A model generated the notes under the pieces. That model was given only the letters and a program-made list of their open reading frames with translations. It searched no databases and was not told the DNA's origin. From an uncultured Chloroflexia bacterium (GTDB lineage: Bacteria > Chloroflexota > Limnocylindria > Limnocylindrales > CSP1-4), in contig CAVTKZ010000002.1 of NCBI GenBank assembly GCA_963735455.1, forward strand, positions 326,009 to 390,008: DNA of 64,000 nucleotides. Direction: 5' to 3'. Position numbers and translations under genes: made by a program. Shown piece by piece: positions 4,565 through 40,215 of this stretch; position 1 is the stretch's first letter, and the number at the start of each line of letters is the position of its first letter.

Positions 4565-6529
<1,965 letters not shown>

Positions 6530-36001: not shown

Positions 36002-36184
36002 CTACGCGGCGACCGCTTCGAAGGCGGCAGCGCCGAGGATCGGTTCGACGATCGAGAACGCCACCAGGCAGCCCTCGCAACGGATCTCGCCGTCGAGGTC
36101 GAGCTGGTCGACCAGGATGGTCCCGTCGCAGGTGGGGCAATCGACGGCGATCAGCGGGTTGGCGATGAAGGTGTTGGTGTCCAT
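36002..36184 (-). CDS. Small Cys4 zinc-ribbon-like protein (60 aa)
   Basis: MDTNTFIANPLIAVDCPTCDGTILVDQLDLDGEIRCEGCLVAFSIVE has CPxC...CxxC spacing. It is the last gene of the ABC-2 operon on the minus strand. Confidence 0.45.
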   Translation of the reverse strand: MDTNTFIANPLIAVDCPTCDGTILVDQLDLDGEIRCEGCLVAFSIVEPILGAAAFEAVAA

Positions 36185-38127: not shown

Positions 38128-38262
38128 CGTCGCATGGACGGCCGACGATGGAGAGCTGTGCCGGAGGTGGGGGAGTTTGGGTCGCGGCGATCAGACCAAC
38201 CGGCACGGCGGGCCCCCCGATCCGAAGAGCGAGACGGACCGACCGGCGCGAACCCAGAAGCC

Positions 38263-38292
38263 ACGGTAGGTCCAGTGGGGGTCCGGTGTCAA
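38263..38292 (-). promoter_or_regulatory. Putative sigma-70-type promoter of the ABC-2 operon
   Basis: On the minus strand, TTGACA (38292..38287), an 18-nt spacer, then TACCGT (38268..38263). This would give a leader of about 130 nt. Confidence 0.35.
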
Positions 38293-38449
38293 TAGATGCT
38301 GTCCGCCTTAGTTCAGCCGTACATGACTACCAGCTCGTCAATGAGGCCCCCCGGGCGTGCTCGACCCGGGCGGGACGCGAGGTCGTTGTGCCAACACCGG
38401 ACCACGGATCGAGCCAGGAACACCGAGTCAGGAATGAACGAAGACCGAC

Positions 38450-38572
38450 CTAGTGCGGGATGGGGCCCGTATCACCTCCTGCGAAGACCGTCGCGGCCGT
38501 TGCCAGCACGAGGAGTGCGGCGAAAAGCCAGGACGCGACGACGGCCCGGGACGGGCGAAGCCTGGAACGCAT
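38450..38572 (-). CDS. Unannotated 40-codon ORF encoding a signal-peptide-like pro-peptide
   Basis: Below the ORF-track size cut-off. My translation is MRSRLRPSRAVVASWLFAALLVLATAATVFAGGDTGPIPH. It has a basic n-region, a hydrophobic core and VFA|GG. GAAGGG lies 10 nt before the ATG, and TACCAT (38632..38627) is a possible -10. Confidence 0.35.
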   Translation of the reverse strand: MRSRLRPSRAVVASWLFAALLVLATAATVFAGGDTGPIPH

Positions 38573-38642
38573 GTGCGGACGACCCTTCTACAAGCAGGGG
38601 CTCGTCCGGTCCGGGTTGGCTCGATGATGGTAGGCTGGCTCC

Positions 38643-38960
38643 ATGGGATTGTCAAGTCTGACTAAACAACGACCCGGGGGACCGCCCGCGGACCTGGCGA
38701 TCGAGCTCGGGCGGCGGATCCGGCTCGCTCGCGAGACGCTCGGAATGAGCCAGGCTGAGCTCGGCCGCCCCCTGACCCGAGCCTACGTGTCCCAGGTGGA
38801 GTCGGGCCGGACCCTGCCCTCGCTGCCGGCCCTCCTCCATCTCGCGGAACGGCTGGGGGTCGCGCCCGGCTTGCTCCTCCAGTCGCGCCAGGCTGACCCG
38901 CAGGGGTACACTCGCGTCGATGGCATCACCAACTCGCTCGATCGGCCGCCCTCCGGCTAG
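38643..38960 (+). CDS. XRE-family helix-turn-helix protein (105 aa)
   Basis: LGRRIRLARETLGMSQAELGRPLTRAYVSQVESGRTLPSLPALLHLAERLGV. TAGGCT at 38631-36 lies 6 nt before the ATG. Confidence 0.75.
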   Translation: MGLSSLTKQRPGGPPADLAIELGRRIRLARETLGMSQAELGRPLTRAYVSQVESGRTLPSLPALLHLAERLGVAPGLLLQSRQADPQGYTRVDGITNSLDRPPSG

Positions 38961-40215
38961 GACCGCCTCGGGAATTGGGGGCCGCATCCGGGCCGCCCGG
39001 ACCGCGGCCGGCTGGACCCAGTCCCAGCTCGCCGGAGAGCGCTTTTCGAAGGCCTACATCTCGGCCCTCGAGAACGGCCTGGTCCAGCCCTCGATGGCCG
39101 CCCTGGCCTACCTCGCCGAGCGCCTGGGCACCTCGTCGGCCGCCCTCCTGGCGCGCGACGATCACGCCTGGACGCGCCTCGAGGCCGATCTGCGCCTGGC
39201 AGCCGGCGACTGGCAGGCGGCGGCGGACGCCTTCGAAGCGCTCCTGGCGACGGCGACCGAGCCGCTCATCCGGGCGGAGCTGCTGCGGGCCCAGGCCGAG
39301 GCGCTCTGCCGTCTTGATCGCGGCCGGGAGGCGATCGGTCCGGCCAGCGAGGCGCTGGCCCTCTTCACCAGGGCCGGCCGGGTCGCGGATGCCGCCCTGG
39401 CGACGTACTGGCTGGCGGGCGCCCACTACGCCTCGGATTCGCTGACCGAGGCGCGCAGCCTGCTCCGTGGCCTGATCGACGATCGGGGCCCAGCGGTCGG
39501 CATTGACCCTGACCTCCACGTTCGGGCCCTCGTCGCGGCGGCCAACATCGACACCCGGACCGGCGCTCATGCCCAGGCCCTGGCCCTGCTGGCCGAGGCC
39601 CAGCGACTGGGCGACGGATTCGACGACCTGCGCCGGGCGACCGTCGCCTACGCCCTGGCCGCGAGCTATCGCGAGCTTGGGGACCTCGAGGGCGCCCTCC
39701 GCCAGGGCCAGCGCAGCCTGGCTCTCTTCCGGGCCGCGGCGTCCGAGCGTGATGCGGCTTCGATCGGCAACAACATGGCCCTGACCTACCTGGCCCTGGG
39801 CAACCTGGCCGAGGCGACGCGCTACGCGGACGAAGCCGCCGCGACCCTGACCCGATTGCCCGACACCCGCAAGCTGGCCCACGTGATCGACACCCAGGCC
39901 CAGATCGCCCTTGCCCACGGCGATCTGAGCACGGCCTCCGAGCTGGCCACCAGGGCGGTTGGCCTGTCCGAGGAGACGGGCAACACCAAGGCGCTCGTGG
40001 ACGCCCTGACCACCCGGGCCCGGGCCGCGTCAGCGGCCGGCAGCCGGGATTCCGCCGCGGCCGACTTCGAACGGGCGGCGGGACTGGCCGATGAGGTCGG
40101 CTCCACGCTGCGCCGGGCCGAGGTGCTCCACGCCTGGGCCGGGATGCTGGCCGAAGCGGGCGACCATCGCCGGGCCTACGAGCTGATGCAAGAGGCGGCC
40201 GGTCAGCCTCGGTAG
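38920..40215 (+). CDS. XRE-HTH N-terminal domain fused to a TPR-repeat domain
   Basis: IGGRIRAARTAAGWTQSQLAGERFSKAYISALENGLVQPSMAALAYLAERLG is followed by about 330 aa of Ala/Leu-rich TPR-like repeats (…AASIGNNMALTYLALGNLAEATRYADEA…). The start is uncertain; the listed ATG overlaps the previous gene by 41 nt. Confidence 0.8.
   Translation: MASPTRSIGRPPARTASGIGGRIRAARTAAGWTQSQLAGERFSKAYISALENGLVQPSMAALAYLAERLGTSSAALLARDDHAWTRLEADLRLAAGDWQAAADAFEALLATATEPLIRAELLRAQAEALCRLDRGREAIGPASEALALFTRAGRVADAALATYWLAGAHYASDSLTEARSLLRGLIDDRGPAVGIDPDLHVRALVAAANIDTRTGAHAQALALLAEAQRLGDGFDDLRRATVAYALAASYRELGDLEGALRQGQRSLALFRAAASERDAASIGNNMALTYLALGNLAEATRYADEAAATLTRLPDTRKLAHVIDTQAQIALAHGDLSTASELATRAVGLSEETGNTKALVDALTTRARAASAAGSRDSAAADFERAAGLADEVGSTLRRAEVLHAWAGMLAEAGDHRRAYELMQEAAGQPR

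Follow-up and report, generated by a model that had tools for sequence, protein, structure and literature searches.

Comparative sequence evidence indicates that a 40-codon open reading frame (ORF) on the minus strand of the window (the whole 64,000-nucleotide stretch analysed; 71% GC) is a real, translated and conserved gene whose product has the anatomy of a Sec pre-peptide, and that the pre-peptide and a divergently encoded cytoplasmic XRE-HTH/TPR regulator are genetically inseparable throughout the class Limnocylindria. We consider it somewhat more probable than the reverse that the two form a peptide–receptor regulatory cassette working like an RRNPP system. The nearest relatives carry the names Candidatus Limnocylindria or Chloroflexota. 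The genes and products concerned are the following.

38450..38572, minus strand: pre-peptide gene, 40 codons plus stop, translated as MRSRLRPSRAVVASWLFAALLVLATAATVFAGGDTGPIPH
Residues 1–31 of the pre-peptide: predicted Sec-type signal peptide, with n-region MRSRLRPSR and h/c-region AVVASWLFAALLVLATAATVFA
38479..38453, minus strand: predicted mature tail, residues 32–40, GGDTGPIPH
38643..38960, plus strand: small XRE-family HTH protein of 105 aa, whose gene opens the regulator operon
38920..40215, plus strand: candidate receptor of 431 aa, XRE-HTH (about residues 13–77) followed by about nine TPR-like helix pairs (about 86–427)

The linkage was assessed in 80 related Limnocylindria loci (81 with the window), of which 74 hold enough upstream DNA. 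In all 74 the small ORF lies divergent from and directly upstream of the HTH-TPR gene, as a signal-type ORF in 59 and a 12-codon mini-type ORF in 15, while the genes flanking the pair vary from clade to clade. The first-pass annotation had proposed checking whether an intact small ORF recurs beside HTH-TPR orthologues, which it does in every informative locus; the layout it described, a small pre-peptide with a Sec-type signal next to an HTH-TPR regulator, appears from these comparisons to be real and conserved class-wide. Reverse look-ups with six peptides returned a divergent XRE or HTH-TPR neighbour wherever the neighbour had domain hits (four peptides, 13 places); for the two remaining peptides the neighbours were truncated or unannotated, on short contigs. 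Among the genomes scanned, the cassette mostly occupies one locus per genome, and it looks vertically inherited.

Substitution patterns point to coding function. In the closest clade, pN/pS of the pre-peptide ORF is 0.33 in frame versus 1.35–2.32 in four other frames, and variable columns number 17/14/33 at codon positions 1/2/3 (of 40 each). Five more subclades and the mini-ORFs gave 0.45–0.51 in frame and 1.0–2.1 in shifted sense frames, so that the in-frame coding signature is found in six independent subclades and the purifying selection anticipated for the small ORF is borne out (pN/pS 0.33–0.51 in frame). The closest orthologues (L001–L007) have exactly 40 codons each and 68–90% amino acid identity to the window pre-peptide, and their DNA identity, 0.78 up to the stop codon, drops to 0.30 beyond it. 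Gene callers of public databases predict the pre-peptide independently, under the label "hypothetical protein".

The signal-peptide anatomy is kept although the family diverges to ~25% identity. Signal-type members (37–47 aa in the 59 loci) follow one plan: a basic N-terminus, ~22 uncharged residues, [V/A]-x-A and a tail of ~9 residues, usually x-G-G-x-x-P-[FILWY]-P-[KRH]. By our own heuristic, which predicts a Sec signal from N-region charge, the uncharged stretch and the residues at −3/−1, the N-region carries +2 to +5 in 59 of 60 pre-peptides (the 59 loci plus the window), position −3 is V or A in 56 and position −1 is A in 58; the tail has 9 residues in 45. Some variants have Cys at +1, in the same position. 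Only R9, A31 and P39 are near-invariant columns. In the remaining 15 loci all that is encoded is the tail, as a 12-codon version (MRSAHTGGGWPS) that has no signal peptide; the first-pass annotation had not anticipated this form. These mini-ORFs have a pN/pS of 0.45 and an identity of 0.79 versus ~0.3 in their flanks, and the alignments identify the tail as the conserved moiety of the pre-peptide, which the mini-ORFs keep alone. Since the signal peptide is missing, the peptide in these 15 loci cannot be a Sec-exported signal, and these loci do not agree with a model of purely extracellular signalling; they would make the tail directly in the cytoplasm, which argues for a tail acting inside the cell, as expected of a ligand of a cytoplasmic receptor.

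As a separate observation, the tail codons GGA GGT GA (38479..38472) are invariant in the eight closest loci and form an SD-like GGAGGTGA. A family-wide constraint on this element was considered and rejected, GGAGG occurring in only 17 of 60 tails; it is a clade-level oddity.

The DNA between and around the divergent starts carries expression signals for both genes.

38583..38588, minus strand (38588..38583 read 5' to 3'): SD-like GAAGGG, 10 nt before the pre-peptide ATG
38627..38655, minus strand: predicted peptide promoter, −35 TTGACA (38655..38650), 17-nt spacer, −10 TACCAT (38632..38627)
38656..38669, minus strand: conserved AT-rich block, TTGTTTAGTCAGAC, adjoining the −35 upstream
38649..38669, plus strand: imperfect dyad TTGTCAAG-N5-CTAAACAA, comprising the AT-rich block and the −35
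38628..38636, plus strand: extended −10-like TGgTAGGCT for the xre/HTH-TPR operon, with TAGGCT at 38631–38636

At the SD, the block GAAGGGTCGTC is invariant in the eight closest loci; sites of the GGAG/GGAGG type stand 5–10 nt before the start in all family members, and the mini-ORF loci also have an SD at the right distance. The peptide promoter, with its perfect −35, shows 10 of 12 consensus matches (the promoter scan expects 0.1 such sites from shuffled versions of the region), and TTGAC[AT]-17/18-TA[GC]CAT-like promoters with at least 9 of 12 matches occur in 30 family loci including the window. Over these 30 loci the AT-rich block has the consensus TGTTTAGnAATAC. The 21-nt dyad pattern occurs once in the window (0 expected) and, in the eight closest loci, shows no variation at the third positions of the xre codons that it overlaps; block and dyad may represent an operator or UP element. 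On the opposite strand, TGgTAGGCT overlaps the −10 of the peptide promoter in the window, with 6 nt separating it from the xre ATG, which suggests a leaderless xre mRNA. GATGnTAGGCTG is conserved in the eight closest loci, with equal ATG spacing in seven of them (L005 has ATA), and most of the 30 aligned loci have CAT, the complement of ATG, no more than ~8 nt into the spacer of the peptide promoter. The 515-nt intergenic region gave no match to an Rfam element at E up to 1, and no intrinsic terminator was found. At the level of the letters, the first-pass annotation proved accurate: the 40-codon minus-strand ORF with its basic n-region, hydrophobic core and VFA|GG site translates as it had described, GAAGGG lies 10 nt before the ATG, the TACCAT (minus) and TAGGCT (plus) −10s stand back to back, and the XRE gene overlaps the HTH-TPR gene by 41 nt. 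A promoter and an SD, the signals it would have expected of an expressed small ORF, are both recognizable in the sequence.

The candidate receptor scores above cut-off against Pfam TPR_12 (48.5 bits, cut-off 30.1) and HTH_3 (30.6 bits, cut-off 23), and its AF2 model (mean pLDDT 89.3, pTM 0.75) is all-helical, with about nine helix pairs after the HTH. Orthologues have 427–451 aa; relatives number 960 in the protein collection and at least 303 in species-representative genomes. By sequence profile, the top PDB match is PlcR (E 1e-10), mostly through the HTH (29.5 bits), with 13 bits from the TPR stretch; RapH and NprR also match, and ComR matches the HTH. Foldseek retrieved Rap (8rsv, 4gyo, 6t3h) and PlcR (3u3w, 2qfc) at E 1e-6 to 1e-5 and TM 0.4–0.67, PlcR with PapR7 and RapJ with peptide among them, behind generic eukaryotic LGN/Pins TPRs at E 1e-8. 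RRNPP-specific Pfam and NCBIfam models, including the Rgg C-terminal models, did not match the receptor even at E up to 10 or 0.1. The kinship of the TPR domain to RRNPP receptors raised in the first-pass annotation therefore stands in part: some sequence and fold similarity to PlcR and Rap is present, but generic TPRs match better and no RRNPP HMM recognizes the protein. RNPP receptors hold the peptide backbone with TPR asparagines. An invariant receptor asparagine, Asn284, aligns with PlcR Asn159, an observation that we do not use as evidence.

The other neighbours belong less firmly to the unit. The small XRE protein (Pfam HTH_31 42.7 bits, HTH_3 36.6 bits; GC3 0.83) had been counted as part of the layout; it is present in the window, and a look-up from a distant peptide found the identical trio including the 41-nt overlap, but it is optional: of 80 loci, 34 have it between the peptide gene and the receptor gene and 46 lack it. 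An ABC-2 transporter with a zinc-ribbon protein had been suggested as an export or target module. This idea has to be given up: the transporter is adjacent in only 4 of 81 loci (the window, L007, L035 and L055), which places both genes outside the cassette, and L007 alone gave a match to the zinc-ribbon ORF.

The published RRNPP signature comprises five criteria: a propeptide of 10–100 aa, a Sec/SPI signal (SignalP) or PptAB export, a receptor of 250–500 aa, C-terminal TPRs (with an N-terminal HTH in DNA-binding subfamilies) and direct-neighbour genes (PMC10075063). Four of the five are found in the window if the Sec signal predicted by our heuristic is counted: the propeptide has 40 aa, the receptor has 431 aa, and TPR_12 and HTH_3 score above cut-offs in the C-terminal TPR and N-terminal HTH arrangement. 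On the same count, all five are found in the 46 loci without the small XRE gene, where peptide and receptor genes are direct divergent neighbours; in the window and 34 loci the 105-aa XRE gene lies between them.

For such a cassette we infer peptide binding, export, re-import and density dependence. The pre-peptide would be exported and cut after Ala31 (VFA|GG), releasing GGDTGPIPH, which would return to the cell, probably via an oligopeptide permease, and bind the 431-aa regulator on the concave side of its TPR superhelix. Binding would alter occupancy of the dyad by the HTH-TPR regulator together with the small XRE protein; as this AT-rich dyad, the putative target, overlaps with both the peptide promoter's −35 and the start of xre, production of peptide and regulator would thereby become a feedback switch. 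The 12-codon variants of one subclade would deliver the same tail directly in the cytoplasm.

Known systems resemble this arrangement in different respects. PlcR/PapR of the Bacillus cereus group likewise combines a receptor with an N-terminal XRE-type HTH and a C-terminal TPR superhelix (PlcR 3u3w matches over 311 columns of the receptor in Foldseek) with a pre-peptide of ~40–48 aa that has an N-terminal Sec signal, predicted here, and an active part, presumed here, at the extreme C-terminus. Unlike PlcR, the receptor is ~140 aa longer with more repeats and has no PlcR-type HMM membership; the peptide gene lies upstream in divergent orientation, whereas that of PlcR/PapR is downstream and co-directional; in the window an additional small XRE gene stands in between; the host is a member of Chloroflexota rather than Bacillota; and the tail is Gly/Pro-rich and class-wide conserved. 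Streptococcal Rgg/SHP and ComR/ComS share the small peptide gene divergent from an HTH-repeat regulator, with a common intergenic region at which regulation takes place there and would take place here, and some of their peptides have no Sec signal, as in the 12-codon mini-ORFs; SHP and XIP, however, are hydrophobic and PptAB-exported, whereas the present tails are Gly/Pro-rich and have no linked exporter. With AimR/AimP of Bacillus phages and Rap/Phr the cassette has in common a ~40-aa pre-peptide with Sec signal and short C-terminal peptide and a cytoplasmic TPR sensor (a putative sensor here), phage phi3T Rap, RapJ and pLS20 Rap being among the Foldseek hits (E 1e-6 to 1e-5). AimR/AimP and Rap/Phr are accessory and mobile-element-borne with fast-diversifying peptides, as the pherotypes of Firmicutes RRNPP systems are accessory and fast-diversifying, whereas this cassette is chromosomal, occurs in all informative related genomes sampled and keeps its tail motif class-wide; Rap proteins, moreover, have no HTH.

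Three other readings were weighed against a peptide–receptor cassette. It is rather unlikely that the product of the small gene is a secreted or membrane-anchored micro-protein and the gene simply a local target of the divergent XRE/HTH-TPR regulators, with the TPRs sensing something else and the tail having an unrelated extracellular or membrane function. Divergent regulator–target pairs are common, adjacency alone being no proof of a ligand relation; the 22-residue uncharged stretch suffices as a membrane anchor and could remain uncleaved, Cys +1 variants could be lipid-anchored, the fold matches of the receptor TPRs are generic, and the tail motif is conserved across the class instead of diversified. 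Yet the signal-less mini-ORFs keep the tail under purifying selection, which an extracellular or membrane function would hardly explain, peptide gene and regulator stay together in 74 of 74 loci while their surroundings change, and the receptor needs a ligand, TPR superhelices typically taking extended peptides.

A cis-acting leader of the SecM/MifM/VemP/ApdA type, in which the C-terminal Gly/Pro-rich motif would stall the ribosome until export relieves it, seems to us highly improbable. It shares with those peptides a small ORF with an N-terminal export signal and a conserved Pro-containing motif at the extreme C-terminus beside the stop; the mini-ORFs retain that motif alone, and the tail codons GGA GGT GA of the closest clade, with their SD-like GGAGGTGA, would suit it. 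But those leaders precede and control a Sec/YidC gene of the same operon, whereas here the constant partner is the divergent regulator. The genes downstream are an ABC ATPase, histidine kinases, unknowns and convergent NifU/LigD, none of them Sec/YidC, and because no co-directional downstream gene is conserved, the next gene being convergent in many loci, we reject an arrest or leader function. The motif-to-stop distance also varies (FP*, FPK*, FPRLK*), GGAGG is restricted to 17 of 60 tails and no Rfam element was detected. Least of all do we credit, at a barely perceptible probability, a spurious ORF in a GC-rich genome full of chance ORFs, the conserved part being non-coding promoter or operator DNA of the divergent regulator operon. 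The window does contain 598 start-to-stop ORFs of 30–60 aa, so that the size of this one is ordinary at such GC; its GC3 of 0.78, against ~0.9 in neighbouring genes, makes its composition by itself weakly coding-like; and the single antisense frame with a common wobble position also has a low pN/pS (0.42 in the closest clade), that shared position being the reason why composition or GC3 cannot tell the two frames apart. Only the 38450..38572 ORF passes a pre-peptide filter, devised after the family was known, that asks for a basic N-terminus, 18 or more uncharged residues, a small-x-small site and a short tail. It stands out from chance through its conservation, all 74 of the 74 informative loci of relatives carrying it. 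Its start, stop and length are kept, conservation ends at the stop codon, the signal-peptide anatomy persists down to ~25% identity, every locus has a correctly spaced SD, the in-frame coding signature recurs in six independent subclades and independent gene callers predict the gene. The spurious-ORF reading is effectively already refuted.

A peptide–receptor cassette in this class would be new, as the first-pass annotation had supposed and in agreement with the literature searched, where TPR-receptor peptide quorum sensing (RRNPP) is described only for Firmicutes and their mobile elements and no published description of this cassette was found; the RRNPP survey tool was applied only to Firmicutes and viruses (PMC10075063). 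More tentatively, at a little under an even chance, this may be the first RRNPP-type peptide–receptor communication outside Bacillota, a vertically inherited core cassette of Limnocylindria that forms a series from a Sec-exported pre-peptide (a cell-to-cell signal) to a signal-less 12-residue peptide (a cell-autonomous ligand) by in-frame loss of the hydrophobic core. The modest reading, too, offers a new family, at least 300 protein clusters of 37–47-aa "hypothetical protein" entries, together with a dedicated regulator. If true, the fuller reading would extend the RRNPP design principle to another phylum, in a high-GC Chloroflexota class known here only from MAGs, and would provide a testable handle on cell–cell signalling in Limnocylindria as well as a natural experiment, exported versus signal-less peptide, on the route from exported signal to intracellular ligand.

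The small ORF proposed here lies where the first-pass annotation put it, with the same strand and 40 codons, and its other landmarks were confirmed in the sequence: GAAGGG before the ATG, back-to-back TACCAT/TAGGCT, and an XRE gene overlapping an XRE-HTH/TPR gene by 41 nt.

Features of the cassette in the window
38572..38450, minus strand: small ORF (peptide gene), 40 codons, product MRSRLRPSRAVVASWLFAALLVLATAATVFAGGDTGPIPH
10 nt 5' of the small-ORF ATG, minus strand: GAAGGG, Shine-Dalgarno (SD)-like
38655..38650, minus strand: TTGACA, -35 of the peptide-gene promoter, 17 nt from the -10 TACCAT; 10/12 consensus matches
38643..38960, divergent from the small ORF: small XRE gene, 105-aa XRE-HTH protein
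38920..40215, divergent from the small ORF: HTH-TPR (receptor) gene, 431 aa, Pfam HTH_3 and TPR_12 above cut-offs

The -35, absent from the earlier description, is a perfect consensus, and sites of TTGACA-17-TACCAT grade are expected 0.1 times in shuffles (consensus scan). The -10-like hexamers TACCAT (minus) and TAGGCT (plus) overlap. The window has 71% GC, and its nearest relatives are MAGs of Candidatus Limnocylindria, phylum Chloroflexota. A 322-nt untranslated gap (38128-38449) separates the peptide gene from an ABC ATPase gene; it holds a CCCGGG...CCCGGG hairpin (~38349-38369) and showed no T-tract terminator and no Rfam match.

One alternative, a very unlikely one, was a spurious ORF: the window contains 598 start-to-stop ORFs of 30-60 aa, and the GC3 of the small ORF (0.78) is only weakly coding-like. 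Since such short ORFs are ubiquitous at this GC and GC3 is weak, the question was decided by conservation. A genome scan with the HTH-TPR protein profile yielded 80 loci, all in Limnocylindria-type MAGs. All seven closest loci carry the ORF at the same divergent position, always with 40 codons, an ATG start and 68-90% protein identity. Among these, variable columns at codon positions 1/2/3 number 17/14/33, pN/pS is 0.33 in frame versus 1.35-2.32 in four other frames (0.42 in the antisense frame sharing the wobble position), and DNA identity, 0.78 over the final 30 nt of the ORF, is 0.30 over the 30 nt past the stop. Searching six-frame translations of all loci with an HMM of the closest peptides (one iteration) recovered signal-type members from 59 loci and the window, each immediately upstream of the regulator and on the other strand. 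Five more subclades gave pN/pS of 0.45-0.51 in frame versus 1.0-2.1 in shifted sense frames, and GGAG-type ribosome-binding sites lie 5-10 nt 5' of the start in all family members. Seven of ten exact peptide sequences were already in the protein collection, predicted by public gene callers; a profile search of that collection returned 311 clusters, nearly all named ones being 'hypothetical protein' and none with a Pfam domain. Judged by conservation, the small ORF is a real gene: as the synteny and purifying-selection check envisaged at the outset, it recurs beside HTH-TPR orthologues with constrained codons.

The peptide gene, in its long signal-type or 12-codon (mini-ORF) version, was present in 74/74 loci with sufficient upstream DNA; the other 6 of the 80 are cut by contig ends and were left out. 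In a reverse test, the neighbours of six diverse peptides from the protein collection were inspected. Where the neighbour carried domain hits (four peptides, 13 places), it was divergent and encoded either an HTH + TPR_12 protein (431-432 aa, once 361 aa) or the preceding 101-105-aa XRE. For one distant peptide, the trio of the window recurred exactly, 41-nt overlap included, in two unlike genomic contexts; the contigs of the sixth peptide are < 1 kb, and the divergent gene on them is cut short, with no domain record. The extra small XRE gene is optional: it separates peptide gene and receptor in 34 loci and is missing from 46. Flanks beyond the peptide gene are not conserved and differ by clade, indicating that the gene is monocistronic in many genomes.

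Genes beyond the peptide gene
Window, L007, L035 and L055 only: ABC ATPase/ABC-2 pair
Some clades: PAS or KdpD-like histidine kinases
Some clades: unknown genes
Some clades: convergent NifU-like and LigD genes

With the ABC pair so restricted, the ABC-2/zinc-ribbon module, once considered a possible export or target module, was ruled out as part of the unit. The 60-aa CxxC...CxxC zinc-ribbon ORF (36002-36184, minus, GC3 0.92), downstream of the ABC-2 permease, resembles LysW/MJ0042-type zinc fingers only weakly, below threshold, and was refound in L007 only. Several small-XRE loci (L016:2242-3438, L036:2180-3346, L024:2012-3718 and others, minus) have a PAS- or KdpD-type sensor histidine kinase gene on the peptide gene's strand, 50-230 nt downstream, a feature that is not family-wide. 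Without the small XRE (L029-L080 type loci; L081-L090), the cassette occupies a conserved neighbourhood ordered LigD, NifU-like gene, peptide gene, HTH-TPR, unknown gene, DUF3090, phosphatase-like gene.

Thirty loci, the window and most small-XRE loci among them, have a TTGAC[AT]-17/18-TA[GC]CAT-like peptide promoter preceded by an AT-rich conserved block, TGTTTAGnAATAC; most of the 30 also have CAT (complement of ATG) near the spacer start. The xre start codon (ATG in 7/8 loci; ATA in L005) begins 7 nt past its own -10, TGnTAGGCT, in the window and the seven loci closest to it. From this spacing we infer complete overlap of the two promoters, which face opposite ways, and a probably leaderless xre mRNA. 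An in-frame TTG (window 38649), kept in 8/8 closest loci, could be an alternative xre start. The AT-rich block and the -35 form an imperfect dyad, TTGTCAAG-N5-CTAAACAA (38649..38669), unique within the window and invariant in the closest clade even at xre third-codon positions; it is a candidate operator to which one of the HTH proteins might plausibly bind. Where the small XRE is absent, the conserved intergenic blocks are different ones, and the HTH-TPR gene likewise starts 7-9 nt past a TAGACT-like hexamer.

AF2, run with 25 homologues, confidently models the receptor (pLDDT 89.3, pTM 0.75) as all-helical, with about nine helix pairs behind a five-helix HTH. Among solved structures, PlcR ranks first in the sequence-profile search (E 1e-10; HTH 29.5 bits, TPR stretch against PlcR residues 156-263 13 bits), ahead of RapH, NprR and ComR. 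The fold search is led by LGN/Pins TPRs (E 1e-8), with Rap of phage phi3T, PlcR-PapR7-DNA, RapJ-peptide and pLS20 Rap lower (E 1e-6 to 1e-5; TM-scores 0.4-0.67 for RRNPP proteins), and no RRNPP-specific Pfam or NCBIfam model matched. Some of the proposed kinship is thus seen: the receptor has the RRNPP architecture and a weak affinity to PlcR, and its placement in the family would be tentative. In the closest genome-collection relative (L007, MAG palsa_1033, 90% identity), the HTH-TPR gene (L007:4215-5455) has a frame shift near 4601-4604 with ~18 residues unmatched, apparently either a pseudogene or an assembly error; P0001, from elsewhere, is an intact homologue (91%).

Anatomy of the pre-peptide in 60 signal-type members (59 loci and the window)
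Length: 37-47 aa
N-region: 4-16 residues, usually 7-11; net charge +2 to +5 in 59/60
Uncharged stretch, h plus c region: ~22 residues
Position -3: V or A in 56/60
Position -1: A in 58/60
Tail length: 9 residues in 45/60
Usual tail pattern: [G/D/S/E]-x-G-G-x-P-[F/I/L/W/Y]-P-[K/R/H]-stop

Only R9, A31 and P39 are near-invariant. Across the alignment, the signal part evidently drifts freely with its character kept, and the tail motif is the retained element; signal-sequence rules predict export and cleavage. A lipobox-like Cys at predicted +1 occupies the same aligned position in L012, L013, L020, L044, P0159, P0162 and P0170 (..TVAA/CSNGNGFP, ..VMA/CTGGGDFPR; slash, predicted cut). Since A, S, G or V stands there in close relatives, any lipidation would not be a conserved trait. 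At 38472-38479 (minus), GGAGGTGA corresponds to codons 32-34 (Gly-Gly-Asp), which read GGA GGT GA[TC] in 8/8 closest loci though 33/40 third positions vary; GGA and GGT are rare Gly codons here, and together the codons make a perfect SD-like sequence. GGAGG occurs in 17/60 tails, so this feature is not family-wide.

Fifteen loci (L010, L032, L038, L043, L045, L046, L049, L051, L060, L065, L067, L069, L072, L078 and L079) lack the long ORF despite enough upstream DNA and have a 12-codon ORF in the same place on the same (minus) strand, ~180-230 nt upstream of the HTH-TPR match start. Its product, M-R-S-A-H-T-G-G-G-W-P-S (MRSAHTGGGWPS) or a close variant, keeps the tail motif without a signal peptide. 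The mini-ORF has its own GGGAGA-type SD 6-8 nt upstream, identity between loci of 0.79 versus 0.31-0.34 in ungapped flanks, and pN/pS of 0.45 in frame versus 1.15-1.26 in shifted sense frames. The receptor tree places these loci together, as an almost monophyletic group nested among those with pre-peptides ending .../STGGGDFPR and similar; the simplest reading would be in-frame loss of the hydrophobic core, with start and tail retained. The signal-less variants favour intracellular action of the tail, which would fit a cytoplasmic receptor and speaks against a role confined to the membrane or the outside of the cell. With such variants, the system cannot be a cell-to-cell signal in every case.

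Of the models considered, the best supported is an RRNPP-like circuit in which the pre-peptide would be exported and cut after Ala31, and the 9-mer taken up again to bind the receptor TPR domain, altering HTH occupancy of the overlapping promoters; we infer these steps, and the sign of the regulation. The layout claimed originally stands in that a small peptide gene is divergent from HTH-TPR in all 74 loci with sufficient upstream DNA, and is qualified by the receptor's tentative family placement and the signal-less loci. Alternatively, the small gene may be a regulated target with an unrelated function or, much less probably, the ORF a cis-acting arrest peptide. Against the RRNPP-like circuit, the TPR matches are generic in nature, the tail motif is conserved class-wide, and the scan usually found one locus per genome, apparently vertically inherited, unlike Firmicutes pherotypes.

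In the literature searched, descriptions of RRNPP systems concern Firmicutes with their plasmids and phages; RRNPP_detector was run on genomes of Firmicutes and viruses (PMC10075063). RRNPP and Chloroflexi co-occur there in a single paper, about a Streptococcus Rgg regulator, which names each once in passing, and no paper linking Limnocylindria with quorum sensing was found, consistent with the initial claim that such systems are known essentially from Firmicutes and their mobile elements and would be new in a high-GC Actinomycetota/Chloroflexota-type chromosome. The cassette would carry a known design into a new phylum, its receptor lineage and peptide family being new as well; it also has an optional extra XRE gene and signal-less forms.
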